From: an uncultured Bacteroidales bacterium
GTDB lineage: Bacteria; Bacteroidota; Bacteroidia; Bacteroidales; Bacteroidaceae
Direction of reading: 5' to 3'
Assembly (NCBI GenBank): GCA_902798615.1
Contig: CADBXL010000029.1
Coordinates: forward strand, 3,722 to 67,721
DNA: 64,000 bases
In this document: positions 20,791 through 49,088 of the stretch, one piece after another
How positions within the stretch are numbered: the first letter of the stretch is position 1
Layout of the letters: each line of letters opens with the position of its first letter
The notes under the pieces: generated by a model
The model's input: the letters and a program-made list of their open reading frames with translations, nothing else
Databases searched by the model: none
Told to the model about the DNA's origin: nothing
Program-made: the position numbers and the translations under genes

Positions 20791-22458
20791 TTATTCCGCT
20801 TTCTCAAGAATAGCCTTCCACTCCTCAAAGCTATGCACATCGAATTTGCTCCATGTGGCAGCAAACTGATAGGTGTAATGCTGTCCGGGATTAAGGGTGG
20901 CGATAGCAAGGAGATGGTCCTGCTCATGCTTGAACTTTGTTGCCTCAGGACATCTTGCTCCTATGTAGATAACGCCATCTGAACCGTCTTTTTTCACCAT
21001 AGTAGGGTCTTGGTAGTCCTCGTAGGCTATGTAGTGGTATTTCTTGTCGGCATAGACTTTGGGGTTCTCCTTATGAACCACGATGCCCACGGCAATCTGC
21101 ATCTTGCGGTCGAGACCTTCATACCATACCTCGCACGTATTGAATCGCTTGCCTTTTTCCACTGATATTATCCTATGCTCGGTGTAGTGAATGGAATCGC
21201 CATTCTGAAGCCTGTAGTCAACAGGCTTTAGGGTGACGTGCATCTTCAATCGCTCTGGTGTCTGCTCCAAGAACTCGCATTTCTCCCAGCTCCAAGGGAA
21301 GATAATCTTTCCGTCGGTATCAAGCAAGGCAGGTGTGCAACAGCCAAGACTTGCACCTACGGCATAGCAATCCATACCGTTGCCCCAATCCTCGTGGAAA
21401 GACTTCATCTTCACGCCCTTAGGTGGCATGTGAAGACGGTAGCGGAGGTCAACGATAGTATCGTGTGTGTTCTTTACCCAGATATCATATCCGAACAGTT
21501 TCTGTCCTGTCTTCTGAACAGCAGGACCATACATGCGATAGGCGCACCACTCGTTTTCCCATGTGAGGTCATCCATTCGGTTATGGTATATCTTGCCAAA
21601 GACAGAAGCCTTCTTAGGAGCATCGAAAACGGGAAGAGTAAGCAACTGCTGCATCAAGGTCTTTGCCATTCGCTCATGACCGAGGTCGTTAGGGTGAAGA
21701 CGGTCGGTTTCGGCATCCTTGAAGAACTTGGCATATTCGTCAGCCATAGGGTAGAGGCCGCAGAGGGCATTCATATCTATGACAGGCACAGCCCAGATGT
21801 TTGAAGCCTCCTTGACGGCATCAACATATTCCTTGAGATAGATGCCGCATTGGTTGGTATAGTCCTCGGAGCATTGCCAGTTCTTGTCGTTGGCATGGAA
21901 ATTCTGACGGTGGATAGGGGTGAGGAGCACAATCTGCTTGTCGGGGTACATGCGCTTCACCTTGTCGAGAGCGATATTGATACGTCCGCGATACGTGTCC
22001 TTGTCCATGCACATATACTGGCGCTTACGCTTGGTCATCGTCTTTGGCTGTCCATGACCGTACATCACCTCCTCCTCTTTCTCCGTGTACCATTCGCCTA
22101 TCTTCACGCCGTTGTTATAGTCGTTAGTGCCCATGAAGATAAGGATTGCATCCACGGAATCGCCATGCTCTTTCATGCACTCCTCTGCCTGACGCGGAAT
22201 ATCATCCCACATACGTCCGCTCTTGGCATATACATACGGCGTTATGCCGAGCCATTCCTGAAGGAAGGTCCAGTATTTCTTCTTGGCGGCCTTATTGCGT
22301 GGGTCGGTGATTGAGTCGCCGAAATAGGCTACGCGCTTGCCTTGCCAGGGGTGAAGACCCACCCCCTGCCCCTCCCATAAAGGGAGGGGAGTAGAATGTA
22401 TTGCCGATAATGGGCATACTGCCAATATTGTGAGTATTATGAATAGTTTCTTATACAT
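20791..22458 (-). CDS. SGNH/GDSL esterase fused to a DUF4861-like domain
   Basis: GDSIT, FMGTNDY and DRLHP catalytic blocks, then NRMDDLTWENEWCAYRMYGP..GYDIWVK. The start is reassigned to MYKKLF. Confidence 0.8.
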   Translation of the reverse strand: MYKKLFIILTILAVCPLSAIHSTPLPLWEGQGVGLHPWQGKRVAYFGDSITDPRNKAAKKKYWTFLQEWLGITPYVYAKSGRMWDDIPRQAEECMKEHGDSVDAILIFMGTNDYNNGVKIGEWYTEKEEEVMYGHGQPKTMTKRKRQYMCMDKDTYRGRINIALDKVKRMYPDKQIVLLTPIHRQNFHANDKNWQCSEDYTNQCGIYLKEYVDAVKEASNIWAVPVIDMNALCGLYPMADEYAKFFKDAETDRLHPNDLGHERMAKTLMQQLLTLPVFDAPKKASVFGKIYHNRMDDLTWENEWCAYRMYGPAVQKTGQKLFGYDIWVKNTHDTIVDLRYRLHMPPKGVKMKSFHEDWGNGMDCYAVGASLGCCTPALLDTDGKIIFPWSWEKCEFLEQTPERLKMHVTLKPVDYRLQNGDSIHYTEHRIISVEKGKRFNTCEVWYEGLDRKMQIAVGIVVHKENPKVYADKKYHYIAYEDYQDPTMVKKDGSDGVIYIGARCPEATKFKHEQDHLLAIATLNPGQHYTYQFAATWSKFDVHSFEEWKAILEKAE

Positions 22459-22500
22459 AGTCAGTTTTAGTTTAATCAATGTGGTGATAGGTTTCCGAAA

Positions 22501-22708
22501 AAGCCTTGTAAAGGCGAAATAACATAGGCGTGGGTGCAACCCACGTTACATTAACCACCATTTTCCAATAGCGCCGTAGGTGCGATATAATTTCATATTA
22601 TATTGAGAAACATGGAATTATGTCGCCCTTACAGGGCTTTTACTATCAATCCACAACAATAGATAGGGTTACACCCTATCCTATGATATGCCGTCCTTAC
22701 AGGACTTA
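22501..22708. repeat. Long inverted-repeat REP cluster (AGCCCTGTAAGGGCG / GGGTGCAACCC type)
   Basis: The left arm (AGCCTTGTAAAGGCG..CATAGGCGTGGGTGCAACCCACG..AGCGCCGTAGGTGCG) mirrors the right arm, with compensatory changes in the small hairpins. Confidence 0.75.
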
Positions 22709-22891
22709 CAAGATGCTTTTCGGGAATTTCTCGCCACATTGAATTAGTTTATGCTTGCAAAGATACACAATATTCATGAGACCTCCAAGGAAATTCGGGA
22801 AATAGTGAAAAAGTTCTTTCGTCTAATATGTACAGACACAATTCATCCCGAAAGTTTTTGATACTTCCGGGATGAATTGATTATTGACAGA

Positions 22892-25159
22892 TTATTCTTC
22901 CTTGCGCAGGATAGCGGCTGCAGCTACAAGATTCTTGAGGCTATCTACCGTCTCTTGCTCTCCACGAGTCTTCAATCCGCAGTCAGGGTTCACCCATACG
23001 TTAGCTGATGGTATTTTTGCCACAATCTTATGCAAAGTATCAACAATCTCGTTGACTGATGGCACACGTGGCGAGTGGATGTCATACACACCTGGACCTA
23101 CTTGTGTCTCGAAGTTGGCGGCATTGAGTGCGTCAAGCAATTTGAGGTCTGAACGGCTTGCCTCGAATGTGATGACATCAGCATCCATGTTGTCAATGTC
23201 CTTGACTATGTCGCTGAATTCGCTATAACACATGTGGGTGTGTATCTGCGTTTCGGGCTTTACGCCTGAGTGAACAAGCCTGAATGCTGGTATTGCCCAG
23301 TCAAGGTATTCGCTGTGCCATGCACTTTTGCGCAACGGCAGTTTTTCGCGTAATGCGGCCTCGTCAACCTGTATTATCTTTATTCCGCCACGCTCAAGGT
23401 CGAGTACCTCGTCCCTGATGGCGAGGGCAATCTGTAGAGCCTGCTCCTTGAGCGACACGTCCTCGCGTGGGAACGACCAATTGAGTATGGTGACCGGACC
23501 TGTGAGCATTCCTTTCACAGGCTTGTCTGTTAGGCTCTGAGCATATACAGACCACTCTACGGTGATTGGTGACTTGCGGCTCACGTCGCTCCATACTACT
23601 GGTGGCTTTACGCAACGTGTACCGTAGCTCTGAACCCAAGCGTTCTGCGTGAATACATATCCATCCAGTTTTGAGCCGAAATACTCCACCATGTCGTTGC
23701 GCTCAAACTCTCCATGCACCAGCACGTCAAAGCCCAATTGCTCTTGCAACCTTATACATTCAGCAATCTTCTTTTGGTTGTATTCTACATACTCTTCACG
23801 TGTGATTGTACCCTTCTTCAGAGCGGCACGCTTTGCCCTGACTTCTGCGGTCTGTGGGAAAGAGCCGATAGTGGTCGTTGGGAAGGCTGGCAGGTTGAGT
23901 ATTCCCTCCTGTATCTTGCGGCGCTCACTACGGCTTGGTCGGCGCTCGAAGTCTGCGGTCGAAAGTTGGTTGACATTCTGGCGTACCTCGCTATTGCCCT
24001 CGGTACGCGGTTTTGCAAATAGCGCCTTGTTCTCCTGAAGACCATTGCCATTGGCAATATCAGAAAGTTCCGTGAGTTTCTCCTCGGCAAAAGCGAAGTG
24101 GCGTAGTATTTCTTCTGATAGTTTCTCTTCAGAGCCTACTGTATATGGCACATGTAATAGCGAGCATGATGTGCCGATGACGATATTGTCTGCTGGCACG
24201 ACCTTCTCTATCTCCTTAAGCAACTCAAGCTTGTTTGTATAGTTGGCACGCCAGATGTTCTTGCCGTTCACGATGCCAGCAAAGAGCAATACATCCTTTG
24301 GGAAGCCGCTTTGTGTCAGTTCTAGTGTCTTGCGTCCCTCGATGAAATCAAGTCCTATGCCGTCAAAGCCAAGTTCTATAACGTCAGCATAGGCCTCGCG
24401 GATATCGCCAAAGTAGGTCTGTAGCAAAATTCTCAGTCCGCTTTCTTTTCTTATACGGCTAATGAGGTCTGAATAAATTGCCTTGAAGAGGTTGCGCTGC
24501 TCTTTATTTAGTTCGAGTACCAGAGACGGTTCTGCAAAGCTTACCCACTCAGCTCCAGCCTCGGCCAATTTGAGTGCTACTTGTGCGTATGCCTCGGCTG
24601 CCTGAATTGCAAAATCCTTGGCACGCTTACTGCCTGTGTATCTTGCAAGAGATAGGAAAGTAAATGAACCTGTCAGTACGGGGACAGTCTGATAGCCAGC
24701 CGCCTTTGCCTCGTTGTATTCCTCCACAGGCTTTATGTAGTCATTAACCGTGAATACCGTGTTGTCGTCAATCTCTGGCTCAATATAGTGATAGTTGGTA
24801 TTGAACCATTTTTTCATAGGTAGTGCCTTCACGTCGCCTTTCTCCCCCTGATAGCCATGTGAGGCTGCGAAATATGTCTCAATGCGACCAAGTCCCAGAT
24901 TGCGGTAGCGTGCTGGTACCACACCGAAGATAAATGCCGTATCAAGTACGTTGTCGTAGAACGAGAAGTCGTTTGATGGGATGAAGGTAATTCCTGCATC
25001 TTTCTGTTTCTTCCAGCCATAGTAGCGTAAATCCTTTGCGATCTGACGCAATTCCCCCTCGGTAATATCGCCTTTAAAGAATGATTCACTCGCGAACTTA
25101 AGTTCGCGTTTTTTTCCAATACGTGGAAAACCGATTACTGATGTCTTTCTTTTTGTCAT
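22892..25159 (-). CDS. metE: Cobalamin-independent methionine synthase
   Basis: [43 protein letters not shown] and [11 protein letters not shown]. The start is reassigned to MTKRKT. Confidence 0.96.
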
Positions 25160-25342
25160 ACGTTCCTGTTTTTTTATTGTATTCTTGTTATTTTCATGGT
25201 GCAAAGGTATGAAAAGAATTATTTCGTTGCAAAATAATTCTGTAACTTTAGGAAAATATGCTTTGTTTGTACTAGGATCTATAACGAGTGCAGAATATTA
25301 TCCTGCGCAATCGTGAAAGAAACAGGAAAGATAAAAGAAAAA

Positions 25343-25379
25343 TCCCACACTATCAAGGAAAATTCTTGATGGTGTGGGA
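25343..25379 (-). terminator. Intrinsic terminator after fprA
   Basis: TCCCACACTATCAAG / CTTGATGGTGTGGGA stem with a T-run on the minus strand. Confidence 0.75.
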
Positions 25380-25428
25380 ATAGTTATGTTAATAACAGCG
25401 GAGTATGTGTCAGGTTTAATGGATGGCC

Positions 25429-26589
25429 TTATACCATAGCATCCACAAGTGCCTGAAGCTGAGGGATGTCAGACTCCTTCATGCGGCTCCAGATAGTAAC
25501 GGTAGGCTCTACAATCTCGATGTCCTTGCAACCTTCAAGGAGTTTCTTCATAGTCTTGGCTGCCGTTGGAGCCCAAGAGCCGTTCTCGATGATGCCAACC
25601 TTACGCTTCTGGTAAGCCTTCATCTCAAGATGATGGATGAAATCGTACATTGGAGGGAATACGCTTGCATCGTAGCTTGAAGCGGCAAGTACAAGACGGT
25701 TCATTCGGAAAGCATCCTCGATAGCCTCTGCCATATCGTCGCGGCAAAGGTCGGTTATTGCCACCTTACCAATGTTCTTCTCACGGAACATCTCTGCCAC
25801 CTTCTCTGCCACTACCTTTGTACCTCCGTGGATAGAAGCATACGCAATGAGAACGCCCTCTGTCTCAACACCATACTTTGACCATGTGTCGTAGAGACCG
25901 ATGTAATATCCGAGGTTCTCCTTGAGGATAGGACCGTGGAGAGGACAGATAATCTGTATGTCGAGAGCAGATGCAGCCTTCAGGAGTTTCTGTACCTGCA
26001 TGCCATATTTTCCGCAGATATTGAAGTAATAGCGACGAGCCTCACAAGCCCAGTCCTCGTCGGCATTAAGAGCACCGAACTTGCCAAAGCCGTCGGCAGA
26101 GAACAGCACTTTGTCCTTTGAATCATAGCTCACCATTACCTCTGGCCAATGCACCATAGGAGCAGCAACAAAGCTGAGGGTATGCTCGCCAAGCTCAAGT
26201 GTATCGCCGTTCTTTATCTCAAGGCAGTTGGCTTTAAGGTCTTTCGTTGGGAAGAAATTGCCAAGCATGGTGATAGCCTTGCCAGAAGTGACGATTTTCA
26301 CCTCCGGATATTTCTCAACCACCTCTGCAATGAGAGAGGCATGGTCAGGCTCCATGTGGTGAGCCACGAGATATGCAGGCTTACGTCCTGCAAGAGCCTC
26401 TTCAAGGTTAGCCCACCATTCCTTGCCCTTGCGGGCATCGGCAGTATCCATGATTGCTATCTTCTCATCCTCGATGAGGTAGGAGTTATATGCCATTCCG
26501 TTTGGCACTTCGTACTGGCTTTCGAAGAGATCGATGTCAAGGTCATCAACGCCAATATACTTGATTGTAGGGGTGATATTATTTACCAT
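25429..26589 (-). CDS. fprA: Flavodiiron protein (FprA, MBL fold plus flavodoxin)
   Basis: YNSYLI, HHMEPDH, MVHWPE, FSADGFG and PLHG, followed by a flavodoxin domain. Confidence 0.92.
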   Translation of the reverse strand: MVNNITPTIKYIGVDDLDIDLFESQYEVPNGMAYNSYLIEDEKIAIMDTADARKGKEWWANLEEALAGRKPAYLVAHHMEPDHASLIAEVVEKYPEVKIVTSGKAITMLGNFFPTKDLKANCLEIKNGDTLELGEHTLSFVAAPMVHWPEVMVSYDSKDKVLFSADGFGKFGALNADEDWACEARRYYFNICGKYGMQVQKLLKAASALDIQIICPLHGPILKENLGYYIGLYDTWSKYGVETEGVLIAYASIHGGTKVVAEKVAEMFREKNIGKVAITDLCRDDMAEAIEDAFRMNRLVLAASSYDASVFPPMYDFIHHLEMKAYQKRKVGIIENGSWAPTAAKTMKKLLEGCKDIEIVEPTVTIWSRMKESDIPQLQALVDAMV

Positions 26590-26645
26590 TTACCATTTAC
26601 CATTTACTATTTAACTATTTACTAATTACTATTTACAAAAATCAC

Positions 26646-26733
26646 GTGCAAAGTCTATCTTCGCACGAAGAAGAAAGTGCGTGTCAGCCCTAAAGGCTGG
26701 CGCACGGTCTTTGATTCTGCGAGTGCAAAGATA
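26646..26733 (-). promoter_or_regulatory. TATCTTTG promoter plus conserved two-hairpin leader (copy B)
   Basis: GACCGTGCGCCAGCCTTTAGGGCTGACACGCAC, then GTGCGAAG/CTTTGCAC. Confidence 0.75.
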
Positions 26734-26835
26734 CAAATAAGTTTTCAATTCTCAAAAAAACAAAGAATAAAGTTTTTATCGAAATTGAAATTATTACAAA
26801 TTGGTGTTCTTTTAAAAAACAAAAAACATAAAAAA

Positions 26836-27380
26836 GCTAATCAATTAATAATTAACAATTAACAATTAACACTTGCGAAGCTTGATGAGCTTGCGAAGAA
26901 CTGCGAAGCTAGTGAACTTGCGAACAATTAACATGCGGTTCTTATTGTTTTTGTCTTATTATAACGTCAGTTCGACCAAATTGCTGAAACAGCCTGCAAG
27001 GCTAACAAGCTAATAGCCTAGGGCATCGCCCTAGATACATTGAAGTTTGTCAATTTCGCCCTGTAGGGGCAAAAGCATCTTTATGTTAGGGCTTTTGCCC
27101 TTTCAGGGCGTAGTCTATCTATTGAACCAATACCGGCGCAAGCCGACAAAACAATTTTTCGCTAGACTCAACAAGCTAAAGCAAGTGTTAATTGATTAGC
27201 TTTTTCCTGTTTTTTACCTTAATGTCTTGCCGTAGGCCTGATATGTGGATTTGTTTTTATCGGGAAGCCCTAAGGCTTACCAGGAAAAATAAATACGCAT
27301 AGCAGCAAGAGGCGAGGAACGAGACTCTAAGACATTAAGGGGTTCTTATTGTTTTTGTTTTATTTATAACTCAAATTCCT
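26836..27380. repeat. Stack of several small non-autonomous repeat elements
   Basis: Inverted ends near 26836-26900 and 27155-27200, REP hairpins at 26995-27115, 12-bp inverted repeats at 27217 and 27329, and a direct repeat GTTCTTATTGTTTTTGT near 26938 and 27342. Confidence 0.65.
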
Positions 27381-27433
27381 GATGAACGGTAAGTTGCATT
27401 GGTTAGCGGATAGTAATAAAATGGGATAGCATT

Positions 27434-27466
27434 AAAAAGGCAACCTCAGAAATGAGATTGCCTTTT
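27434..27466 (-). terminator. Terminator after ferredoxin (possibly bidirectional)
   Basis: AAAAAGGCAACCTCA / TGAGATTGCCTTTT. Confidence 0.75.
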
Positions 27467-27493
27467 AGTTCTAAACGCTATGCGTGCGGAGTC

Positions 27494-27661: not shown

Positions 27662-27828
27662 AATGTTTTTGTTTTATTATTAATACTATTTTTGTTTCAA
27701 TTAACGATGCAAAGATAGTATTTTCTTTTGGAAATACCTAAAAATAATGAGGAAAATTTCAAAAAAAGTTCATTTTTCCTCTTTGTCAAGGGGACAAATA
27801 CCTTTTTGTAGGTATTGAACAATGTTCG

Positions 27829-28572: not shown

Positions 28573-28597
28573 ATTTAATTAACCGCCCATCACAAAC

Positions 28598-28766
28598 GGC
28601 CCCTCACCTGCCCTGCGGGCATCCTCTCCCCAAGGGGCGAGGAAGGAGTTACCTTTGTACGCTATTTATCTGATTTTATTTCCATGACTTGCCCCATTGG
28701 TTAGAAATACTAACTTTTTTCCTCGCCCCCTTGGGGAGAGGATGCCCGAAGGGCAGGTGAGGGGCC
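28598..28766. repeat. REP doublet (GGCCCCTCACCTGCCC..CGGGCATCCTCTCCCCAAGGGGCGAGG family)
   Basis: Unit 28598-28642, inverted unit 28721-28766, and a third unit at 30379-30423. Confidence 0.88.
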
Positions 28767-28774
28767 GTTGTCTT

Positions 28775-29554: not shown

Positions 29555-29562
29555 ATACTAAG

Positions 29563-29761
29563 CCTAACCAAGCCTTCCCAAAGGGAAGGATGTTTTAATG
29601 AATTAATCCCCCAAGGGGAGGATATGTTGTTAATTATAATTATTTTGCCCCCATGATTTGAAATACTAACCACTCCCCCTTGAGGGGGTGAGGGGGTGGA
29701 TCCCTGACACATACTCGGAGATACTCAATCTCCGACTTCCCTTGGGGAGGGACTGGGTGGG
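29563..29761. repeat. REP cluster with a hairpin micro-insert
   Basis: Several CCCC..GGGG units. The spacer TTGCCCCCATGATTTGAAATACTAAC resembles the 28689-28714 spacer. Insert at about 29704-29738. Confidence 0.7.
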
Positions 29762-30378: not shown

Positions 30379-30423
30379 GGCCCCTCACCTGCCTTTCGGG
30401 CATCCTCTCCCCAAGGGGCGAGG
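30379..30423. repeat. Single REP unit upstream of folE
   Basis: Near-identical to 28598-28642. Confidence 0.85.
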
Positions 30424-30464
30424 GGGAAATTACATTTATTGTTTTGAGGAAATCACTTGAGGGG

Positions 30465-34449: not shown

Positions 34450-34543
34450 TGCTATGTTTTTACGTAAATTCATGGTGCAAAAGTACTAAAAAAATCAGAA
34501 ACACCCGAATATGTCATTCTTTTTTTGTAATTTTGCAGGCGAA

Positions 34544-36145
34544 ATGAAGGATTATACTGACGCCGAACTGGCGGAATTACTTGATAAAGATATTTTTCAC
34601 ATGATTTCAGAGGCTGCCGACAGCCTCGGTCTTGAATGTTATGTGGTAGGGGGATATGTCCGTGATATATTCCTCGAAAAACCATCTGATGATATTGACT
34701 GCGTGGTGGTGGCTCCTAACGGAATGCCATCCCCTGGAATTGCTGTTGCCAAGAGTCTGAAGAAGAGACTTGGCAAGAAAGCCTCTCTTTCTGTATTCAA
34801 GAACTTTGGAACAGCACAAGTGAAGGTATATGGAAGGGATATAAACGAATCGGCTTCCTCTCTACGGGAGAGGGCGGGGGAAGAGGCTGTTGAGGAGTCT
34901 TCTATAGAAATAGAATTCGTCGGCGCTCGCAAGGAAAGCTACCAGCGTGATTCCCGCAAGCCTATCGTTGAAGACGGCACTCTTGAGGATGACCAGAACC
35001 GTCGTGATTTTACCATCAACGCTATGGCTATCTGTTTGAACAAGAGTCGCTTTGGTGAACTCGTTGACCCGTTTGGAGGTGTTGATGACCTGTATGATGG
35101 AATAATCCGCACACCTCTTGATCCAGACATCACTTTCTCCGATGACCCTTTGCGAATGCTCCGTTGCATCCGCTTTGCTACACGCTTCAACTTCCTTATC
35201 GAAGACGAGACTTTCGAGGCTCTTGAACGTAATGCCGAGCGTATCAAAATCATTAGTGGAGAGCGCATAGCAGAAGAGTTGAACAAGATTCTTATGACCA
35301 AGCATCCAAGTCGTGGCTTCGTGGATTTGCAACGCTCTGGTCTCCTTGCAATTATCTTCCCTGAACTCTCGCAGATGGATATGGTCGAGACTAAGAATGG
35401 TCGTGCCCATAAGAATAATTTCTACCATACTTTGGAGGTGTTGGAAAATCTTATTTCGCAAACCACCAACACCCAACCTGCTCCGACAGGCACAAATGAA
35501 ACCTCCGTCGGTTCTCCGGCTCCCTCTCTACGGGAGAGGGCGGGGGGAGAGGCTCCTCTCTGGCTCCGTTGGGCAGCAGTTCTCCACGACATCGGCAAAC
35601 CGAAGAGCAAGCGCTGGGATCCTGTTCAGGGTTGGACATTCCATGCCCACAACATTATAGGCGCAAAGATGATTCCCGGTATCTTCCGCAGAATGAAACT
35701 ACCTATGGATGCCAAGATGAAATTCGTACAGAAGATGGTGGAACTTCACATGCGTCCTATCGCTATTGCCGATGATATTGTTACCGATTCTGCCGTTCGT
35801 CGTATGGTGAATGATGCTGGTGATGATATTGATGCTCTCATGGCTCTCTGCGAGGCTGATATAACGAGCAAGAACCAACAACGAAAGCAAAAGTTCCTTG
35901 ACAACTATCAGCTTGTGCGCCAGAAGATTGAAGACTTAAAGGAAAAGGATTTCAAGCGACTTCTCCAACCTGTTATTGACGGTAACGAGATTATGGAGAT
36001 GTATAATCTCAAACCATCACGAGAAGTCGGAATCCTAAAGCAATATCTCAAGGATGCTGTTCTCGATAATAAGGTTGAGAACGAGCGCGAACCTCTCCTT
36101 GCCTTGCTCAACGAGAAAGCAAAGGAATTAGGTTTAGTGAAGTGA
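34544..36145 (+). CDS. cca: CCA tRNA nucleotidyltransferase with HD domain, carrying two in-frame REP insertions
   Basis: VGGYVRD, DIDC, RRDFTINA, DDPLRMLR and LHDIGK. The start is reassigned to MKDYT (34544). Confidence 0.92.
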   Translation: MKDYTDAELAELLDKDIFHMISEAADSLGLECYVVGGYVRDIFLEKPSDDIDCVVVAPNGMPSPGIAVAKSLKKRLGKKASLSVFKNFGTAQVKVYGRDINESASSLRERAGEEAVEESSIEIEFVGARKESYQRDSRKPIVEDGTLEDDQNRRDFTINAMAICLNKSRFGELVDPFGGVDDLYDGIIRTPLDPDITFSDDPLRMLRCIRFATRFNFLIEDETFEALERNAERIKIISGERIAEELNKILMTKHPSRGFVDLQRSGLLAIIFPELSQMDMVETKNGRAHKNNFYHTLEVLENLISQTTNTQPAPTGTNETSVGSPAPSLRERAGGEAPLWLRWAAVLHDIGKPKSKRWDPVQGWTFHAHNIIGAKMIPGIFRRMKLPMDAKMKFVQKMVELHMRPIAIADDIVTDSAVRRMVNDAGDDIDALMALCEADITSKNQQRKQKFLDNYQLVRQKIEDLKEKDFKRLLQPVIDGNEIMEMYNLKPSREVGILKQYLKDAVLDNKVENEREPLLALLNEKAKELGLVK

Positions 36146-39954: not shown

Positions 39955-41265
39955 TTATTCCTCAACTGTGAATCCCAGAGCCTCTATGGCAGAACGGATT
40001 TCATTGATATCGGCATTTCCGTCAATCTGTGCCTTGCCTGAAGCAAGGTCAACGCTTGCTGATGTCACACCATTGCAACCGAGAATAGCCTTCTCCGCAT
40101 TTGCGCGACAATGGTTGCAGTTCATTCCTTTGATTGTTATTTCCATATCGTGATTTTTTGTAGTTATATCGCATGATTCCTCGTCGTGGCAATGACAATG
40201 GTGATGACCGCCGTGATAGTGATGCCAAGCCGCATTGATAAGCAGAAGCATGAGCACTCCTGTGCAAATCCATGAGAAGAGAGAGGTCTCTTCGTGGCAA
40301 CATTCTGCTGATGGGGCTATTGTCGGTATGAACCATTCGCGTGGCAGAAGATGGTCTATTGTGAGTCCGAAACCTACAGCTCCTGCAATGATACTTGCCA
40401 GATACGTGATGAGGGTCTTCCTGCCCATAACCTTATTAATAACGAGTATGCTTGCCATATTACATGCAGGACCTGCCATAAGCAACACCAGAGCCGAACC
40501 TGGTGTTAATCCCTTCAGCATCAGGGCTACTGCGATAGGAATACTTCCCGTAGCGCACAGATACATTGGTATGGCAAAGGCGAGCACAAGTAGCATACTT
40601 GCCAACGAGTTATCCTTGAATACCTCGAAGAATGAGTCAGGCACAAGCACGGTTATCAGTCCTGCCACTATCAGTCCTATCATCAGCCATTTGCCTATAT
40701 CCTCCATCATTTCAAGGAAAGCGTAGGATAAGGCTTCCTTTATCTTCCCAATAAAAGAATGTTCGTGCTCGTGTGAATGTTCGTGGTTGTGACCGCATCC
40801 ACACTCACAATGAGCCTCTACAGGTTTATTATGCTGACTTTCCTCTCCCTCCCTCGGGAGGGCTGGGGAGGGGTCTTTGTCCGCCATATTCACCATCTGC
40901 CCTCCGAACAATGCTGTCACGAATGCTATGATTGGGCGAGCTATGGCGAATGGAAGTCCCATGAGCGAATAGGTGGCTATGATTGAGTCCACGCCTGTCT
41001 GTGGTGTTGCTATGAGGAATGAGGCTACTGCCCCCTTGCTTGCTCCTTCCTTACGGAGCGACATAGCCGTTGGGATTACTCCGCATGAGCAGAGTGGGAG
41101 AGGGATGCCAAAAAGGGCAGAGTAAAGCACGCTACTGAATGTTGGCTTGGCAAGATATCGGCTGTATATCTGCCCTGGGATGAATGCGTGCATAAGTCCT
41201 GCAAGGAGGAATCCTAATAATAGGAAAGGAGACATTTCGTTGATGAGATGTAGTATTTGTTCCAT
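39955..41265 (-). CDS. SO_0444-family metal permease with His-rich linker and C-terminal HMA domain
   Basis: PLPLCSCGVIP, PMYLCATGSIP, HNHEHSHEHEH and GMNCNHC. Confidence 0.88.
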   Translation of the reverse strand: MEQILHLINEMSPFLLLGFLLAGLMHAFIPGQIYSRYLAKPTFSSVLYSALFGIPLPLCSCGVIPTAMSLRKEGASKGAVASFLIATPQTGVDSIIATYSLMGLPFAIARPIIAFVTALFGGQMVNMADKDPSPALPREGEESQHNKPVEAHCECGCGHNHEHSHEHEHSFIGKIKEALSYAFLEMMEDIGKWLMIGLIVAGLITVLVPDSFFEVFKDNSLASMLLVLAFAIPMYLCATGSIPIAVALMLKGLTPGSALVLLMAGPACNMASILVINKVMGRKTLITYLASIIAGAVGFGLTIDHLLPREWFIPTIAPSAECCHEETSLFSWICTGVLMLLLINAAWHHYHGGHHHCHCHDEESCDITTKNHDMEITIKGMNCNHCRANAEKAILGCNGVTSASVDLASGKAQIDGNADINEIRSAIEALGFTVEE

Positions 41266-41471: not shown

Positions 41472-44072
41472 ATGAATTTCGAAAAGTTTACAATCAAGGC
41501 ACAACAAACGGTTCAAGAAGCCGTCAACGGTGCACAACGCAGTGGTCAACAAACCATTGAGCCAGTTCACATTCTCCGTGCTATCTTGACGAAAGCACAG
41601 GATGTAGCAGGTTTCCTGTTCCAGAAGCAGGGCGTTAATCCACAACATATATCACAGGTGGTGGAGAGTGAGATTAATCATTTGCCAAAGGTATCTGGTG
41701 GCAATGGTCAGCCTTATCTTTCAAACGAAAGCAATCAGGTGTTTACCCGTGCAGAGGCTCTTGCTCAGGAGATGGGCGATGAGTTCGTTAGCGTGGAGAC
41801 ATTGTTCCTTGCTCTCGTTGAGGTGAATAGTACGGCAAGCAGGATTCTGAAGGATGCAGGTCTTAACAAGCAGAACGTGTTGTCGGCCATCAAGGAACTG
41901 CGTCAGGGTAAGAACGTGAAGTCGCAGTCGGCTGATGATAACTACCGTTCACTTGAGAAATATGCCAAGAACCTTGTGGCTGATGCCCGAGCTGGAAAAC
42001 TCGACCCTGTCATCGGTCGTGATGATGAGATTCGTCGTGTGCTCCAGATTCTTTCTCGCCGTACCAAGAACAACCCTATATTAATAGGTGAGCCTGGTAC
42101 TGGTAAGACTGCCATCGTGGAGGGTTTGGCACAGCGTATAGTTCGTGGTGACGTGCCTGAGAACCTGAAGGATAAGATGCTCTATTCACTCGATATGGGT
42201 GCTCTTGTGGCAGGTGCGAAGTATAAGGGCGAGTTCGAGGAACGACTGAAGAGTGTTATTTCTGAGGTTACTGGAGCCGACGGTCGTATCATCCTCTTCA
42301 TCGATGAGATTCACACCCTTGTGGGTGCTGGTGGTGGTGAGGGGGCTATGGATGCTGCCAATATCCTGAAGCCTGCACTTGCCCGTGGCGAACTGCGTGC
42401 CATAGGTGCAACAACGCTCAATGAGTATCAGAAATACTTCGAGAAGGATAAGGCTCTGGAACGCCGATTCCAAACCGTCATGGTTGATGAGCCTGATGAG
42501 ATGAGTGCAATATCAATCCTCCGTGGATTGAAGGAGCGCTATGAGAATCATCATCGTGTACGTATTCAGGATGATGCCTGCATAGCTGCCGTGAAGCTCT
42601 CAGAGCGTTATATCTCCGACCGATTCCTGCCTGATAAGGCTATCGACCTTATGGACGAGGCTGCCGCAAAACTTCGTATGGAGCGCGACTCTCTTCCAGA
42701 GGAATTGGACGAGAAGACACGTCGTCTTGCCCAACTCGAAATAGAGCGTGAGGCTATCAAGCGTGAGAATGACGAGGATAAACTCGCACAGCTCAACAAG
42801 GAAATTGCCGACCTTCAGGAGGAGGTGAGCCAGTATAAATCCAAGTGGCAGAGTGAGAAGGAACTCGTAAATAAGATTCAGCAGAACAAACAGCAGATTG
42901 AGCAGTTGAAGTTCGAGGCTGAACGTGCCGAGCGTGAAGGCAACTACGGTAAGGTGGCTGAGATTCGCTATGGCAAACTGAAGGCTCTTGAGGATGAAAT
43001 CCAAAGCATACAGTCACAGCTCCATTCAGCTCAGGGTGCTGAGGCTATGGTAAAGGAGGAGGTTACTGAGGATGACATAGCCGAGGTTGTAAGCCGCTGG
43101 ACGGGTATTCCTGTCTCTCGTATGCTCCAAAGTGAGCGTGAGAAATTGCTTCATCTGGAGGAGGAACTGCATCATCGTGTTATCGGTCAGGACGAGGCTA
43201 TCACAGCCGTCAGCGATGCTGTTCGCCGTTCTCGTGCAGGACTTCAAGACCCAAAGCGACCTATCGCAAGTTTCATCTTCCTCGGAACAACTGGTGTGGG
43301 TAAGACTGAGCTTGCAAAGGCTCTTGCCGACTATCTCTTCAACGATGAGACCATGATGACTCGTATTGACATGAGTGAGTATCAGGAGAAGTTCAGCGTG
43401 ACAAGACTGATCGGTGCGCCTCCGGGATATGTGGGCTATGATGAGGGTGGTCAGCTTACCGAGGCTGTCCGTAGAAAGCCATACTCTGTGGTGCTCTTCG
43501 ATGAGATAGAGAAAGCGCATCCTGATGTTTTCAACATCCTTCTTCAGGTGCTTGATGATGGTCGTTTGACCGACTCTAAAGGTCGTACCGTCAATTTCCG
43601 TAACACTATCATCATCATGACAAGTAACCTCGGCAGTCACCTCATTCAGGAGGAGATAAACAAGAACGGTGGTGCTCTCAATGCCAGTCAGTCAGAGGCT
43701 CTATTCGGTCGTATCTCAGCCTTGCTGAAGCAGACCATCCGTCCTGAGTTCCTCAACCGTATTGACGAAACGATAATGTTTACTCCGTTGAACAAGGATG
43801 AGATTGCAGGTGTTGTTCGCTTGCAGATGAATGCCGTTAGCAAGATGCTGGAGCAACAAGGCTTCAACCTCCGTGTAACCGACAAGGCTGTGGAATATCT
43901 TGCTCAGGCAGGATTCGATCCAGAGTTTGGTGCTCGTCCTGTTAAGCGTGCCATCCAGCGCGATGTGCTCAACGCTCTCAGTAAGTCCCTTCTTGCAGGT
44001 GAGGTTACTCGCGAGCACGAGATAGTGATTGACGCAAACGACAGCGGCATCACGTTCAGGTCAGGAAAATAG
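41472..44072 (+). CDS. clpB: ATP-dependent chaperone ClpB
   Basis: Two AAA modules ([16 protein letters not shown]) with a coiled-coil middle domain. Confidence 0.97.
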
Positions 44073-44112
44073 TTTGTTTATATTAGGTTTGTCAGTTTTA
44101 ATCAAAACACCG

Positions 44113-44149
44113 AGCCACCGTAGGAGTGATTCCTGCGGTGGCTTTTTTT
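44113..44149 (+). terminator. clpB terminator
   Basis: AGCCACCGTAGGA / TCCTGCGGTGGCT followed by TTTTTT. Confidence 0.85.
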
Positions 44150-44548
44150 GCATGTAGTAAGATTTAACGTAGATTCTTCTTTCTTCCTCCGAAGTAAATC
44201 CGATATAAATACATATAAAATCCAATTATATTACCATAATAATACAATAGTTAATGGTATTATTATGGTATTATAATGGTAATATAATGGTATTATAATG
44301 GTATTATCATAGGAGGAATAGAGGAGGAAAGAGGGAGAATAGTGGAAGAATGGGATGAGTTAAGAATTGCAAAAACACAATTTCTTGCTGATTTAGAATA
44401 AATATTATTACCTTTGCACAATATAGACTAAAAAGTTTTTTTTTGAAAAAAATGTAGATGATTTAAATCTATTTTTCTGAAATTGCGTCTTTATAAGTAT
44501 AAATGGTTGATAAAACAGTAAAAATAATTTATAACAAAAACAAACTCT

Positions 44549-45757
44549 ATGAAGAAATCGATTATTACTTCCATGCTCATGCTATGTGCTATGAGCGGTT
44601 GGGCACAGGGAACTAAGCCCCCTGTCAATGATTCTATTTGTGTATTTGACGGAACTGTGACAAATGTTCCTGATGGTACAGTTGTTTATTTGGCTCTTCC
44701 AATTCGCGAACATCCCGGAGCATATAAACCTGATACTATAACTACTGTCAAAGGAGGAAAATTCCACTTTGAGAAAGCTATTCCTGCTGGAGACGACTGT
44801 TATGTACGAGTTAGCAAATATGGTTCTATGCTGAATGTCAAATTAAATCCAGGCATGAAGACTGTGATAACAGGTAATGGAATGGAGCCAGAAGAATGGA
44901 CAGCAGAAAATGACCATCCCGACCAGAAAGAAGCCAATATATATAAAAAATACAAGAAGGAGAAACTGGCTGATTACCTTGCATTAAATGCTCAGATAAA
45001 TGCAGCAAACGCAAAGATGTATGAGGCTCAGTTTGATGCAAAGGACGAAAAGAAGGCAAAAGCAGCATCTGATGAAGCCAATAGAATAGCAAAGCAGCTA
45101 AGGCCATTGAGACTCAAATATTTTAATGTCATGTCAGAATTCATCAAGAACAGGGACTTTAGCGCAAGTTATGAGTCGGAACTTGCAATGATTTCACAGG
45201 ATGCGTATTATTCTGATGATGAGGAGAAAATGAATATTTGCCGTGAACTCTTTGCAAAGGTTCCAAAGGATTACATGAGTGAGAGTATTTACTTTGTTAA
45301 GAAATATCTCTACCCTGAAATCAAACCTCTAAAAGCTGGTGATCAGGTAAAGGATTTTACTCTCAACGACCACGACGGAAAACCACATAGCATAATGGAA
45401 TATGCGGGAAAAGGCAAATATCTGTTGCTTGAGAGTGCTCGTAAGGCTTGTACGGGTGAAGTATTGGATAGACCGAAGGAATACTTAAAGGAACTTCACA
45501 AGAAATATGCCGATAAGTTTGATGTCGTTACCCTTGCAATCAGTCCAAAGGAAATGTTTGATGATAAGGAATTCCCACGTGAAGATTGGTTGGAGCTCGG
45601 TTTGAATGAGACTTCTCCATTCGAGGAAATCATGAGCACATATTTCCCAAAGGAAGAACGTTTTGTCTTCATTTCTCCAGAAGGAAAGATTTTGGCTAAA
45701 TGCCGTCCAGACAAACTGAACGAAGAAATCAAGAAGTGTTTTCCATTCGTTGAGTAA
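44549..45757 (+). CDS. DUF4369-like / thioredoxin-fold (TlpA-like) secreted protein lacking CXXC
   Basis: Signal peptide, FTLNDHDGKPHS..EYAGKGKYLLL and FVFISPEGKILA. Confidence 0.7.
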   Translation: MKKSIITSMLMLCAMSGWAQGTKPPVNDSICVFDGTVTNVPDGTVVYLALPIREHPGAYKPDTITTVKGGKFHFEKAIPAGDDCYVRVSKYGSMLNVKLNPGMKTVITGNGMEPEEWTAENDHPDQKEANIYKKYKKEKLADYLALNAQINAANAKMYEAQFDAKDEKKAKAASDEANRIAKQLRPLRLKYFNVMSEFIKNRDFSASYESELAMISQDAYYSDDEEKMNICRELFAKVPKDYMSESIYFVKKYLYPEIKPLKAGDQVKDFTLNDHDGKPHSIMEYAGKGKYLLLESARKACTGEVLDRPKEYLKELHKKYADKFDVVTLAISPKEMFDDKEFPREDWLELGLNETSPFEEIMSTYFPKEERFVFISPEGKILAKCRPDKLNEEIKKCFPFVE

Positions 45758-45786
45758 TGGGAAGTGTTTTTATGATAGATAACTAC

Positions 45787-45819
45787 AAAAAGACGGTGAA
45801 CATTTCGTTCACCGTCTTT
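45787..45819. terminator. Bidirectional terminator
   Basis: AAAAAGACGGTGAAC / GTTCACCGTCTTT between convergent genes. Confidence 0.8.
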
Positions 45820-45832
45820 GTTTCGTATTGGG

Positions 45833-45900
45833 TTATTCTATACCGGTAATCGTGAGGGAATTGCCGTTGACCTTGAATTTTACGTTGCATTCCATACCTT
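45833..45900 (-). pseudogene. Fragment duplicating the 3' end of tsaA
   Basis: Encodes VKFKVNGNSLTITGIE* versus VKFKVNGNILTVHNIF* in tsaA. 25/28 nt match between 45856-45883 and 48404-48431. Confidence 0.7.
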
Positions 45901-45985
45901 CAAGTATTCCGCAACACCTCGTTGACATCATCCCCACCCAACAGAGCATATCCAGACGAGGGTACTATGTCTGAAATGTGGTACG

Positions 45986-47068
45986 TTAATATTCTTTCTT
46001 CTTGTCATCGTTGATGGTCTTGTATTTCCAATACTCTTTTAGGAAATCGATTCTCATCCTACCATAGCTTTCAGTCATTATAATAGCAAATCGTCCGTCA
46101 TGCATCTTGTCAATCCATACTCTGAAAAGTGGATGGCTACTATCAGTTCCTTGCTCAACAGGATTCTTGGGAAATGTTCTGCCATTCTGTAATGTTAAAT
46201 TCCTGTCGTAATAGGAGTTGATATCATTGAAAATATACGATTCGTCTTGATGACTGTCAAGATAGGTGTGTGTAAGTGCTTTGAAATCCTTTATAAACTG
46301 CATTGCCATGTCCTTGGGGATGATATGAACATCGCCGTGAGCTGCACAGAGATCAGGGATTTTCATGCCTTTATAAGCTGTATATAGTTCAGGATGTTCT
46401 TGCAAATAGTTCTTTGAGTATCGATAATCAAATGTCTTGTTTTCTATGCCCTTCTTCTTAAATGCAGACTCAACGAATTTCTTGTAAGCCTGAATGTTGA
46501 AAGGCTTTGTTCCGGTAATGACGGAGTCTATAGTTTGCGTAAAACTAAACATGACAAGACATCGTGGAACTTGCGGATTGTCCGAATTGTCATGGTCCAT
46601 CTTTGTAACTTGAATAAAGTCGGCTCCGGACATCTTTGGCATGTTCTTGAAATTAGAGCCGATGGTTACTCTATTGTCCTTTCGAGGATTCCAGGACATG
46701 GAAATCATCAGACTGTCACAATCGTTCTTCTCCCACCAGTATGACTCGTAGGCACTTTTACGAAGTTGTTGTAGCCCTTGCAATAATGTTTCGTATTTTT
46801 TTTGGAGTTGTTCCGCAACCCCTCCCGTTGCTGCATTCGTTGTGGAATCTCCTACTGATGAATTTGTCGTTGCATCGGGAGATTTCAAGAGGGGGATTTG
46901 AATTATCAAGTCCTTTCTGTTATGGTATGAACTGGTTTCACTTTTAGTGAGGAGGATACCATATTCCCCCAAAGGTTTGACTATTGTTTCTTCCACTCTG
47001 TCAGAGAGAGTCTGTGCAGAAGCATTAATGCTTAGGAGCGCGAATAACGCAATAATTAACTGTTTCAT
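45986..47068 (-). CDS. Secreted hypothetical protein (DUF5024-like), third gene of ECF module 2
   Basis: Signal peptide. Distant paralog of 36523-37626. Confidence 0.6.
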   Translation of the reverse strand: MKQLIIALFALLSINASAQTLSDRVEETIVKPLGEYGILLTKSETSSYHNRKDLIIQIPLLKSPDATTNSSVGDSTTNAATGGVAEQLQKKYETLLQGLQQLRKSAYESYWWEKNDCDSLMISMSWNPRKDNRVTIGSNFKNMPKMSGADFIQVTKMDHDNSDNPQVPRCLVMFSFTQTIDSVITGTKPFNIQAYKKFVESAFKKKGIENKTFDYRYSKNYLQEHPELYTAYKGMKIPDLCAAHGDVHIIPKDMAMQFIKDFKALTHTYLDSHQDESYIFNDINSYYDRNLTLQNGRTFPKNPVEQGTDSSHPLFRVWIDKMHDGRFAIIMTESYGRMRIDFLKEYWKYKTINDDKKKEY

Positions 47069-47748
47069 AATTCTTGGTTTTTAATTGCTTTATATGCCCT
47101 TGCTGAGAGTTCCATGCCTTTCGCGCGAATTTTAGACTGAAACTCTATAGGGTCGTTGAAAATATTATTGTCAAAATTTTGCATGTTTGCGGCAATCATA
47201 GCCTTCACATATTCCTCTGCTGTCATTCCTGATATTGTTAGGGTATCAGTTTCTTTCAAAGGATTTTCTGGTTGTACCATTGGTCGTGACTTTCTTGCAA
47301 CCGCCTTTCTCGCCTTTGGCTTAGATGGCGTGGCGGGTTGTTCGCAAGTGGTCTTTTCTTCTGTGATGGTGACTTTTTCCTGAACAACAGGAATCGTCTT
47401 TGTTTCTACCTTGTTGTTGTCAGCCACGATGGTATCGGCTGATTTTCGTGGGTAAAGCGTGAAGACTAAGATTAAACATGCAGCTATGCCAGCTATTGAA
47501 AGCCAAGGCCATATAGCGCGTTTCTTGGCTGGTTCAGCCACAAACATAGCGTCCACTTCTTCCTGAGTGAAGTCGTAGGCATCAGTATCAAAACTGCTGA
47601 ACAGATCCTTGTAGGCTTCCCATTCTTCTGGAATATGCTCGCTGTGAGAGAAGTAGTCTTTCAACATCTCCTCTTCCGCTTCTGTTGTCTGCCCTTCCGT
47701 GAAGCGCAGCAGCAGTTCCTTTATGTTATCTTCGTTGTATTTCAGCAT
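47065..47748 (-). CDS. Anti-sigma-like single-TM protein
   Basis: LLLRFTEGQTTEAEEE N-terminus and one TM helix. Overlaps the sigma gene end. Confidence 0.75.
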   Translation of the reverse strand: MLKYNEDNIKELLLRFTEGQTTEAEEEMLKDYFSHSEHIPEEWEAYKDLFSSFDTDAYDFTQEEVDAMFVAEPAKKRAIWPWLSIAGIAACLILVFTLYPRKSADTIVADNNKVETKTIPVVQEKVTITEEKTTCEQPATPSKPKARKAVARKSRPMVQPENPLKETDTLTISGMTAEEYVKAMIAANMQNFDNNIFNDPIEFQSKIRAKGMELSARAYKAIKNQEL

Positions 47749-48236
47749 ATTGACTTTTGCATTTTATTGATTAATGCGGCTCTTGCCTTGCAAATCATAG
47801 CTCTTACCGATGATTCTGACGTGCCAAGCATTTTGGCAATCTCTGCGTATGACAGGTTTTCTACGTTTCTCATTCTTATCAATGCCCGTTGCTTGTCGGT
47901 TAGCGAGGTAATGGCATCTTGTAGCCTTTGATGGTTTTCCTTATCTTCAAGCTGTTTGTGGGCATCATAGTGGTTCGTCATCAATGTGCAGTTGTCAATG
48001 TCGGTGGTGAATCTCCTGTCGCGAACCATATTGAGCGAGATATTCCTCACCACAATACTTGCGAGATTACGCATCTTTGCGAAATCATCTATGTCTTTAC
48101 GCTTAAGCCATAATTTGATGAAAGCCTCTTGCACGACATCGTCAGAATCTTCGGAACTTCCAAGATAGTGCATGGCTTGCTGATGCATATGCATCCGCAA
48201 TTTCTGCGCATTTTCTGTGAACTCTTGTAATTCCAT
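47742..48236 (-). CDS. ECF-type RNA polymerase sigma factor
   Basis: DSDDVVQEAFIKLW and LSYAEIAKMLGTSESSVRAMICKAR. Confidence 0.9.
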   Translation of the reverse strand: MELQEFTENAQKLRMHMHQQAMHYLGSSEDSDDVVQEAFIKLWLKRKDIDDFAKMRNLASIVVRNISLNMVRDRRFTTDIDNCTLMTNHYDAHKQLEDKENHQRLQDAITSLTDKQRALIRMRNVENLSYAEIAKMLGTSESSVRAMICKARAALINKMQKSIC

Positions 48237-48380
48237 TTTCTTGCTTGTTTGCTATAATAACACGAAATGGACGATTTCGCTACCAGAAAAAAGGATTTTT
48301 TTTTAGTTCATAGTGCATAATTCATAATTCATAGTTGGAGGGCGTATGCTAACTATGCACTATGAATTATGAACTATGAA

Positions 48381-49088
48381 CTAAAAAATATTATGAACTG
48401 TTAGGATATTGCCATTGACCTTGAATTTTACATCCCGACCAGCGAATGGCATTCCGTAGATGCGGTTAGGGTCATTATGGTATTGCGGACGTGGGTCTTG
48501 CGAAAGAACGCCTCGGAGTGAGGAAAGTTCAGTTGCTGTGAATGTCTTGGCTATTTCCTCTGGGATTATTACTTCGAGAGGTTGCCAGTCATTGTTGTCG
48601 GTGAACCCTCCACGGGCATCGGGATGGGCATCGGCATAGGGAATGTAAGGCTTGATATCGTAGATAGGAGTGCCGTCCATAAGGTCTGCGCCAAGGACGA
48701 GAAGAACGGCCTCTCCCCCCTCCCTCCCCCGTAGGGAGGGAGCCGATTCGATAATGGCTCTATCGTTTTGTGATACTAATTTCACGCAAGAAAGGCCTAT
48801 CGGGTTGGGACGAAATGGGGAGCGTGTAGCGAAAACTCCCAGGCGCTCATTACCTCCAAGGCGTGGAGGACGAACGGTGAGACCTCTCTGCTCATGTTTG
48901 TTGGCTGAGAATCCCCAGATAAGCCAGATATAGTCGAAGCCTTCAAGGCCTCGTATGGCATCTGGTGAAGAGAATTCCTTCTCGAATACAATCTCACCAA
49001 CAAGATCCTTTACCACACCACTCTGGCGCGGAATACCGAACTTGCTCGTCAATGGCGAACGGAAATATGCTATGGGTTTGATGTTCAT
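48381..49088 (-). CDS. tsaA: tRNA (t6A37) N6-methyltransferase TrmO/TsaA, with an in-frame REP insertion
   Basis: KFGIPRQSG, GVFATRSPFRPNPIGLS and GADLMDGTPIYDIKPY. Confidence 0.93.
   Translation of the reverse strand: MNIKPIAYFRSPLTSKFGIPRQSGVVKDLVGEIVFEKEFSSPDAIRGLEGFDYIWLIWGFSANKHEQRGLTVRPPRLGGNERLGVFATRSPFRPNPIGLSCVKLVSQNDRAIIESAPSLRGREGGEAVLLVLGADLMDGTPIYDIKPYIPYADAHPDARGGFTDNNDWQPLEVIIPEEIAKTFTATELSSLRGVLSQDPRPQYHNDPNRIYGMPFAGRDVKFKVNGNILTVHNIF

Follow-up and report, generated by a model that had tools for sequence, protein, structure and literature searches.

Palindromic repeats inserted in frame in housekeeping genes of a rumen Prevotella, and DUF559 genes bracketed by the same repeat families

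The stretch of DNA considered here (the window; 64,000 nucleotides, positions 3722-67721 of contig C29) comes from a metagenome-type assembly of a rumen Prevotella. Four of its genes, which encode a tRNA nucleotidyltransferase (CCA), TrmO, an SGNH hydrolase, and a metal permease, carry in frame five copies of short palindromic repeats that are absent from the proteins of relatives. Genome-wide, such repeats lie in the coding sequences of about 45 genes, and each of nine repeat families also brackets a small gene of its own that encodes a DUF559 protein. The best overall explanation, which we hold with good confidence, is that the repeats entered coding sequence and that a DUF559 cassette is their autonomous form. 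The source assembly comprises 3.46 Mb in 55 contigs, with 43% GC and a completeness of approximately 95%, and DNA matching the lineage is present in bovine and sheep gut metagenomes.

Results

In-frame units in four proteins

The five segments are where a sequence-only reading of the window had placed them, inside intact open reading frames (ORFs), and the peptides listed for them in that reading are read exactly. The Pfam domains of the hosts are PolyA_pol and HD (CCA), TrmO_N/C (TrmO), Lipase_GDSL with DUF4861 (SGNH hydrolase), and ArsP_1 with HMA (permease). Three of the units belong to repeat family A (two in CCA and one in TrmO), one to family B (SGNH), and one to family C (permease); coordinates and peptides are given in Table 1. 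A search with a 26-nt core, allowing up to three mismatches, gave five matches in the window vs none in 100 shuffles.

At CCA site 1, the whole insert spans approximately 34838-34909 and occupies a β-hairpin between GTAQVKVYG and IEIEFVGARK; at site 2, it spans approximately 35449-35556, in a linker ahead of the HD motif. The predicted junction peptides are at DINESASSLR / AGEEAVEESSIEIEFVGAR for CCA and at IIESAPSLR for TrmO. The TrmO unit retains the doublet interior SQNDRAIIES, which suggests that it is probably the right half of a half-deleted doublet. In the permease, the family C unit falls in a cytoplasmic loop ahead of a His/Cys-rich linker. The proposal that the units sit in loops or linkers appears to hold upon alignment to Protein Data Bank (PDB) chains (1xqb and 3wfo): TrmO has some 13 extra residues in one β-hairpin turn when aligned with 1xqb, and CCA site 2 corresponds to a variable linker in the solved structure.

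The family B copy in the SGNH gene has CAG where the consensus has TAA, so that the frame stays open. The fusion of SGNH and DUF4861 in a single ORF was seen in this genome only; the SGNH protein of congeners stops at approximately residue 305, and in congeners G003, G013, G015, and G017 a DUF4861 homologue is found on a separate contig. There is no repeat unit at the SGNH/DUF4861 junction.

Empty, filled, and alternative alleles in relatives

Orthologues were aligned for all five sites, and the inserts are absent in relatives; the possibility that orthologues already carry the same peptides thus fails. CCA orthologues are mostly 475-496 residues long, and the alignments break exactly at both insert sites. 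At both sites, the peptides are missing from 19 congeners as well as from dozens of metagenomic relatives whose proteins, inserts aside, share 85-97% identity. Site 1 occurs in five forms, namely empty (VKVYG-EEGLEI; P0023/33/40/42 and P0026/27/47), with a single A unit, with a full A doublet (P0009/21), and with a doublet of either of two other families. The A doublet in relatives is read in two other frames (GGPLPPPSPVEREP...HSGSLPTGEGGGRG). Site 2 occurs in four forms: most relatives are empty (QTANTQHPSPNTQLWLRW), and the others are filled, filled with an additional nested piece of 10 residues (P0010), or reduced by deletion to the remnant EPADSTRGEAT (P0011/31). A DNA alignment of five CCA alleles exposes the boundaries of the element directly.

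The TrmO site is likewise variable, being empty (P0192/193/196/238) or occupied by a single unit, a full doublet (P0157/171/172/185), a nested form, or a unit of another family. The permease unit is common to the clade at 92% identity or above and absent at 86-89% identity (P0290/296/302/305), and seven congeners lack the segment of 12 residues that follows the SGNH signal peptide. That the same loops are filled differently in other lineages indicates recurrent gain and loss. Filled alleles recur in independent assemblies from ENA, NCBI, and Logan, as well as in RNA contigs.

Repeat families and architecture of the units

Nine families with 488 units were counted in the genome: A (183), B (49), C (7), D (8), F (118), G (32), H (7), I (69), and J (15). 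The counts vary somewhat between searches (A, 183-191; B, 49-60; C, 7-10), and reversed-pattern controls for the repeat families gave no matches genome-wide. A search of the window against Rfam yielded zero families at the gathering score. With up to two mismatches allowed, family A has 170 copies here, and 60 other genomes from the genus and order have 0-2 each, which indicates a lineage-specific burst.

The units are approximately 25-50 bp long and contain a pyrimidine run and a complementary purine run that form a hairpin of 7-10 bp, with a predicted energy of -5 to -12 kcal/mol (DNA parameters). In all nine families, a third G/A(T) run mirrors the purine run, with mirror-compatible scores from 6/6 to 10/10 (e.g., D, 10/10; F, 10/10; A2, 8/8). 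The consensus of family A is 40 bp long (TCCGGCTCCCTCCCTACGGGGGAGGGCGGGGGGAGAGGCC), with a graded inner end and a sharp outer end (...GGAGAGGCC|), and its 7-bp stem covaries, with C..G in 137 copies, T..A in 40, and discordance in six. Its runs, CCCTCCC-TACGG-GGGAGGG-CGG-GGGGAGAGG, can be compared with the consensus of the Escherichia coli triplex motif TMECO, CCCTCNCCC-N3-6-GGGNGAGGG-N3-GGGNGAGGG (Holder et al. 2015, PMC4666352). Judged by these features, the units fit the three-run design of intrastrand triplex motifs (TM/PIT/BoxC) rather than that of repetitive extragenic palindromes (REPs) with a GTAG/CGTC tag. The term REP of the sequence-only reading, if taken in the sense of elements moved by REP-associated tyrosine transposases (RAYTs), names the wrong family: the tag at the foot is missing, and there is a third mirror run.

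About half of the A units are paired in 52 inverted doublets (48-52, depending on the count) of 121-224 bp, with a mode of approximately 143 bp and one outlier of 366 bp; the remaining units are singletons. The interior of the doublets is AT-rich and variable, and doublets are also seen in families B, F, G, and I. Target-site duplications were sought at the 52 A doublets and none was found, the flanks merely lengthening the palindrome by 1-2 bp. A MITE (a transposable element of miniature size with inverted repeats) derived from a DDE insertion sequence was considered and rejected, since terminal inverted repeats are present but the doublets lack such duplications.

An additional element, N, is a hairpin of approximately 35 bp with the core ACATACTCCGATGTTATCAACATCG, present in 47 copies genome-wide, two of them in the window (13293-13317 and 15697-15721). 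It is always located within a three-run unit, in several families, and always at the junction of the mirror run and the hairpin. Relatives have N in frame as well, read as DTYSDVINIG in their CCA protein and as KSDVDNIGVC in their TrmO. Element N resembles a parasite living on the repeats, with structure rather than sequence as its target.

Genome-wide distribution in coding sequence

A unit was counted as deep in a gene when located at least 40 residues from the N-terminal end and at least 25 residues from the C-terminal end of an ORF of at least 250 residues; units within about 30 residues of an ORF start were left uncounted because the true start codon probably lies further downstream. By this measure, 61 of the 488 units (approximately 12%) lie deep in long ORFs, corresponding to about 45 real genes, and nearly all host ORFs were validated with Pfam. 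Approximately one-quarter of the host genes function in DNA replication or repair, to which gene length may contribute. Units were counted in MutS, in UvrD (two units) and a UvrD/RNase T helicase, and in Mfd, PIF1, an SF1 helicase, DnaG, LigA, and RadC. Among the other hosts are a P-type ATPase, an amylase, GH77, CobQ, CbiD, CbiG, MurB, IspG, an aminotransferase, a subtilase, a radical SAM enzyme, and a TonB receptor. In RsmF (G000 C4:81002-82585, L054), five family A units in frame, making up two complete 144-bp doublets and a singleton, lengthen the protein by approximately 110 residues, which lie between and around the three Pfam domains.

Genic copies of family A use five of the six frames unevenly (15/13/1/5/3; p = 3e-4), with two readings rich in G, S, P, A, and E being favored; the sixth frame carries TAG. 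Genic A singletons have the same orientation as the gene in 24 cases vs the opposite in four (p = 0.006). The sequence-only reading had noted that four of the five units in the window share orientation and an equivalent frame. The shared orientation stands in the window, and the genome-wide count by frame and orientation reveals the same bias; the shared frame is local to the window, since family A uses five frames and the frame is thus not fixed. The deep-genic share is 34% for A singletons vs 9% for units in doublets, and 20% of all A units are genic. The divergence of family A copies in coding sequence does not significantly exceed that of intergenic copies (p = 0.10), and we therefore propose no difference in age. 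Family B is open in four frames, and none of its units lies deep in a long gene by the strict criterion.

In a 604-residue ORF on another contig (G000 C11:112303-114117, L026), a complete β-ketoacyl synthase (residues 2-356) is followed by a Ketoacyl-synt_2 domain (455-598); the family A unit located at residue 400 may have fused two adjacent genes.

DUF559 genes bracketed by their own repeat family

A search for genes bracketed by inverted units returned two small ORFs, flanked by A units in one case and by B units in the other, and both encode DUF559 proteins. A search with PF04480 gave ten matches, with E values down to 1e-36, and nine DUF559 genes are present, a higher number than in any other of the 61 genomes from the genus. 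All nine are located in cassettes of approximately 0.55 kb, each with its own family as terminal inverted repeats (A, B, C, D, F, G, H, I, and J), and the bracketing copies match the consensus of the dispersed family, with zero mismatches for A. The sequence-only reading had named DUF559-like and Y1/RAYT enzymes as possible repeat-flanked genes: the former are flanked in nine families of nine, and the latter are represented by two degraded genes with zero units within 1.5 kb. Its further suggestion, that an enzyme encoded outside the window acts in trans, is in line with the lack of a candidate gene in the window and with the nine DUF559 cassettes elsewhere; mobilization as such would follow from that arrangement by conjecture.

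The DUF559 product has approximately 125 residues. Eight paralogues are intact, with 119-135 residues and 40-61% identity to each other, and D59, E70, D72, and H76 (D/ExD/H) are invariant. The paralogues match PDB entry 3hrl at 3.5e-20 and the YcjD-type model of NCBIfam, and the product is predicted to be a Vsr-fold PD-(D/E)xK nuclease.

The same arrangement is found in about 27 of 30 full-length DUF559 loci of the genus, and in 43 of 76 Bacteroidota loci vs 6 of 76 shuffled-pair controls. In a test that was set beforehand, family F was found in 76 copies here, 62 in G063, and none in 59 other genomes, the first two being exactly the genomes with an F-type cassette. Similarly, the repeat of the G043 cassette has 13 copies in G043, one in G033, and none in 59 others. 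A repeat family is thus confined almost entirely to genomes that have its cassette. The spacer between map and tsaD measures 15-184 bp in 13 of 13 congeners and at least 444 bp here, where it is filled by the A cassette, which identifies the A cassette as an insertion.

In a table of PMC9881135, DUF559 genes are enriched among predicted inversion targets, which fits with their being flanked by inverted repeats. In the literature that we searched, no paper connects DUF559 with REPs or MITEs.

Gene callers stretch tsaD, argB, and gmk upstream through the stop-free units into or up to the DUF559 cassette (L240 1862-3001; L111, L113, and L122), and such stretching produces false N-terminal extensions and apparent fusions. 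Frames of up to 1311 residues around DUF559 genes of congeners resembled in-frame cassettes within genes, but we base no claim on any of these loci: L111, L113, L122, and L129, read in the right frame, are upstream ORF extensions through stop-free units into the next gene (argB, gmk), and L108, L110, L116, L121, and L123 (including the frames of 817, 1161, and 1311 residues) had been read in the wrong strand or frame.

Transcription across the inserts

The units are transcribed together with the mRNA of their host. Metatranscriptome contigs run from CCA host sequence into the units, at site 1 over 34557-34875 and 34862-34947 and at site 2 over 35405-35521, and alternative CCA alleles are present as RNA too. 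The RNA contigs over the host-unit junctions show no clean excision joint. Given the intact frames in essential genes, the inserts are presumably translated.

Table 1. Hosts, in-frame units, and other repeat units in the window (positions are those of the window)
Feature	Position	Strand	Remarks
Family A inverted doublet, intergenic	2325..2471		147 bp, MITE/REPIN-like form
Family A doublet, intergenic	13181..13337		right unit split by nested 35-bp hairpin N (core 13293-13317)
N-bearing unit	~15697-15721		
GDSL/SGNH hydrolase fused to DUF4861	20791..22539	-	582 aa from TTG; likely start MYKKLF...
Family B unit in SGNH	22355..22392	-	just past signal peptide; peptide TPLPLWEGQGVG
Family F unit, intergenic	28620..28645	-	
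Family I unit, intergenic	29571-29592		
Family F unit, intergenic	30401-30426		
CCA host: tRNA nucleotidyltransferase/poly(A) polymerase-family with HD	34511..36145	+	544 aa; PolyA_pol, PolyA_pol_RNAbd, HD
Family A unit, CCA site 1	34852..34888	+	peptide ESASSLRERAGEEA
Family A unit, CCA site 2	35518..35554	+	peptide SPAPSLRERAGGEA
ArsP_1 permease with C-terminal HMA (SO_0444-type Cu/Zn efflux)	39955..41265	-	436 aa
Family C unit in permease	40845..40875	+	opposite to gene; peptide DPSPALPREGEES
TrmO (tsaA) host	48381..49088	-	235 aa
Family A unit in TrmO	48708..48744	-	peptide ESAPSLRGREGGEA

Discussion

The sequence-only reading had likened the inserts to Rickettsia palindromic elements (RPEs) and proposed that they create new peptide segments, a view supported by the empty sites in relatives and by the in-frame copies throughout the genome. 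In the mechanism that we consider most likely, the DUF559 cassette would be the autonomous form, the doublets its gene-less derivatives, and single units half-elements that arose by partial deletion. The cognate DUF559 nuclease would recognize and cut the structured ends of its own family, and cutting would drive copying into new sites without target duplication. Units that entered coding sequence would have survived there when free of stops, in frame, and placed in loops or linkers. A genic unit is transcribed with the host mRNA and would then be translated into a surface segment of 10-48 residues, rich in G, P, S, A, E, and R.

Several explanations compete with this mechanism. If no dedicated enzyme were involved, structure-prone motifs could spread and be lost by slippage, template switching, recombination, and gene conversion, the DUF559 gene being a bystander at those unstable intergenic places, a passenger, or a domesticated guardian. 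Such a scenario is in keeping with the E. coli TM sites, which are local variability hotspots with mobility genes not found nearby (Holder et al., PMC4666352), with the refilling of the same loops by different families and the partial deletions seen there, and with a cassette that is static among near-identical strains. It is nonetheless unlikely in our view: active copying is needed to explain approximately 180 nearly identical copies, at loci unrelated to each other, in a single species vs 0-2 in 60 others, nine cassettes pair with nine distinct families and their bracketing copies match the dispersed consensus, and two tests of family/cassette co-occurrence were passed. Another possibility is artefact or convergence, that is, chimeras formed at repeats during assembly or binning, or ancestral low-complexity linkers that happen to resemble the repeat. 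The assembly is indeed of the metagenome type with 55 contigs, and the sites are loops of variable length in many species, but host sequence is colinear on both sides of the inserts, filled alleles recur across the independent assemblies and RNA contigs, and the units match a consensus of 35-50 nt with 0-5 mismatches in several frames, which convergence at the peptide level cannot give. We consider this explanation very improbable.

The units could also be classical REPs or REPINs (REP doublets forming hairpins), mobilized by a RAYT, a Y1/HUH tyrosine transposase, encoded elsewhere in the genome. The inverted doublets are REPIN-like, the lack of target duplication is as expected for Y1 enzymes, the genome has two matches to PF01797, several RAYT genes of congeners are flanked by hairpins, and a RAYT gene could be missing from an assembly that is about 95% complete. 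Both Y1 copies are degraded, however, one having an internal TGA and the other lacking the C-terminal catalytic region, and GC hairpins are as absent as repeat units within 1.5 kb of either gene. The hairpins flanking the congener RAYT genes are of a different, GTAG-footed type; families B to J lack the GTAG/CGTC tag and the GTAG of family A sits in the loop (PMC3733652), and Y1 genes are present in genomes without family A units. Taken together, these observations make a RAYT origin unlikely, and we rejected a RAYT as the mobilizing enzyme.

At the congener loci L069, L070, L075, L076, and L077, Y1/RAYT genes have GTAG-footed hairpins on both sides (e.g., CGTAGGGGCTTGCCCCTACG and CCCAGGGCAACACCCTGGG). 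The genus thus harbors classical REP-RAYT systems alongside the repeats associated with DUF559.

A number of observations weigh against the mechanism proposed above. The A cassette is at the same place on all seven contigs that encode an identical protein; it is static among them, and movement of the cassette itself is evident only when different species are compared. The co-occurrence of families and cassettes might stem from common descent or from joint horizontal transfer and not from function. To our knowledge, strand-transfer chemistry is not known for a Vsr-fold nuclease of 125 residues acting alone. All six frames of family I are open, yet none of its 69 units is located in a gene, so that the rule by which stop-free units are tolerated holds only partly. 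The RNA evidence is tempered by the fact that metatranscriptomes can contain DNA. Finally, an AlphaFold2 model of the CCA protein, built from a 31-sequence alignment, had a pLDDT (predicted local distance difference test score) of 41 and was unusable for placing the inserts, so the loop placement rests on the alignments to PDB chains.

Selfish palindromes in frame in housekeeping proteins have been regarded as a Rickettsia hallmark, apart from scattered REPs within genes elsewhere. According to PMC10969869, which relays Ogata et al. 2000 and 2002, R. conorii has 44 in-frame RPE insertions. The likeness extends to dispersed palindromes in frame in many unrelated housekeeping genes (about 60 units in about 45 genes here), to their absence from orthologues, to several coexisting families, and to sites apparently compatible with folding. 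The host is different, Rickettsia being an obligate intracellular parasite and the present organism a free-living rumen commensal of the Bacteroidota. The units here are also shorter (12-16 residues singly and approximately 45 as doublets), their insertions are visibly polymorphic among near relatives, and, unlike RPEs, they have the three-run design and DUF559 as a candidate cognate gene. Set apart by host and unit design as described, the elements would best be regarded as working like RPEs without being members of that group.

The likeness to TM/PIT/BoxC elements concerns the order of the parts (pyrimidine run, loop, complementary purine run, short loop, mirror purine run), highly conserved runs next to variable loops, paired palindromic forms, and elevated local variability. 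TMECO has 23 copies, reported as always intergenic, at local variability hotspots, and a mobility gene was not found nearby (PMC4666352). Here, by contrast, nine families with 488 units were counted, about 12% of the units being deep in genes, and each family brackets a DUF559 gene; the strictly intergenic location of TMECO is a property of one species and not a defining feature. With REP/REPIN-RAYT systems, the elements share short GC-rich palindromes, inverted doublets able to form a long hairpin, and the "REPtron" logic, in which the enzyme gene is single-copy and has its own repeats on both sides. They differ in that the flanked gene encodes a Vsr-fold DUF559 protein and not an HUH Y1 transposase, and in that the GTAG/CGTC tag at the foot of the palindrome is absent and a third mirror run is added. 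For intragenic REPs, an enrichment in genes of DNA replication and repair has been described (Di Nocera et al. 2013, PMC3733652), and similar hosts are found here (MutS, two UvrD-type helicases, Mfd, LigA, DnaG, PIF1, and RadC).

Vsr-like (EDxHD) homing endonucleases such as I-Bth0305I have in common with the DUF559 proteins the nuclease fold and clan (DUF559/Vsr) and the context of a selfish element (cited via PMC9403480 and PMC3424549); they sit in introns or inteins and copy themselves into one cognate allele. The DUF559 gene is instead free-standing between structured inverted repeats, and the gene-less repeats multiply at hundreds of unrelated sites. In sum, the elements act like RPEs and intragenic REPs, belong structurally to the triplex-motif class, and have a candidate partner enzyme that is outside the known transposase families.

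A more far-reaching combination of these ideas is possible, although we regard it as falling a little short of probable. Short DUF559 proteins (YcjD-type, Vsr-fold) would be the missing partners of triplex-motif repeats, each paralogue recognizing the ends of its own family and multiplying gene-less copies; a burst of family A would have rewritten surface loops of about 30 housekeeping proteins, and element N would be a hyperparasite of DNA structure. Together, these would make up a nuclease-driven mobile class, not based on a transposase, that generates protein-coding novelty.

For annotators of metagenome-assembled genomes of Bacteroidota, it matters that the units break assemblies, lengthen ORF calls upstream, and mimic gene fusions. 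The spread of the triplex-motif class, an orphan class, has so far been unexplained, and the pairing of nine DUF559 genes with nine families offers a concrete and cheap biochemical test. In this abundant, free-living rumen Prevotella, in-frame colonization has occurred on a scale comparable to that in Rickettsia, and because empty, filled, replaced, and half-deleted alleles segregate among near relatives, the birth and decay of protein loops are open to direct study in metagenomes.

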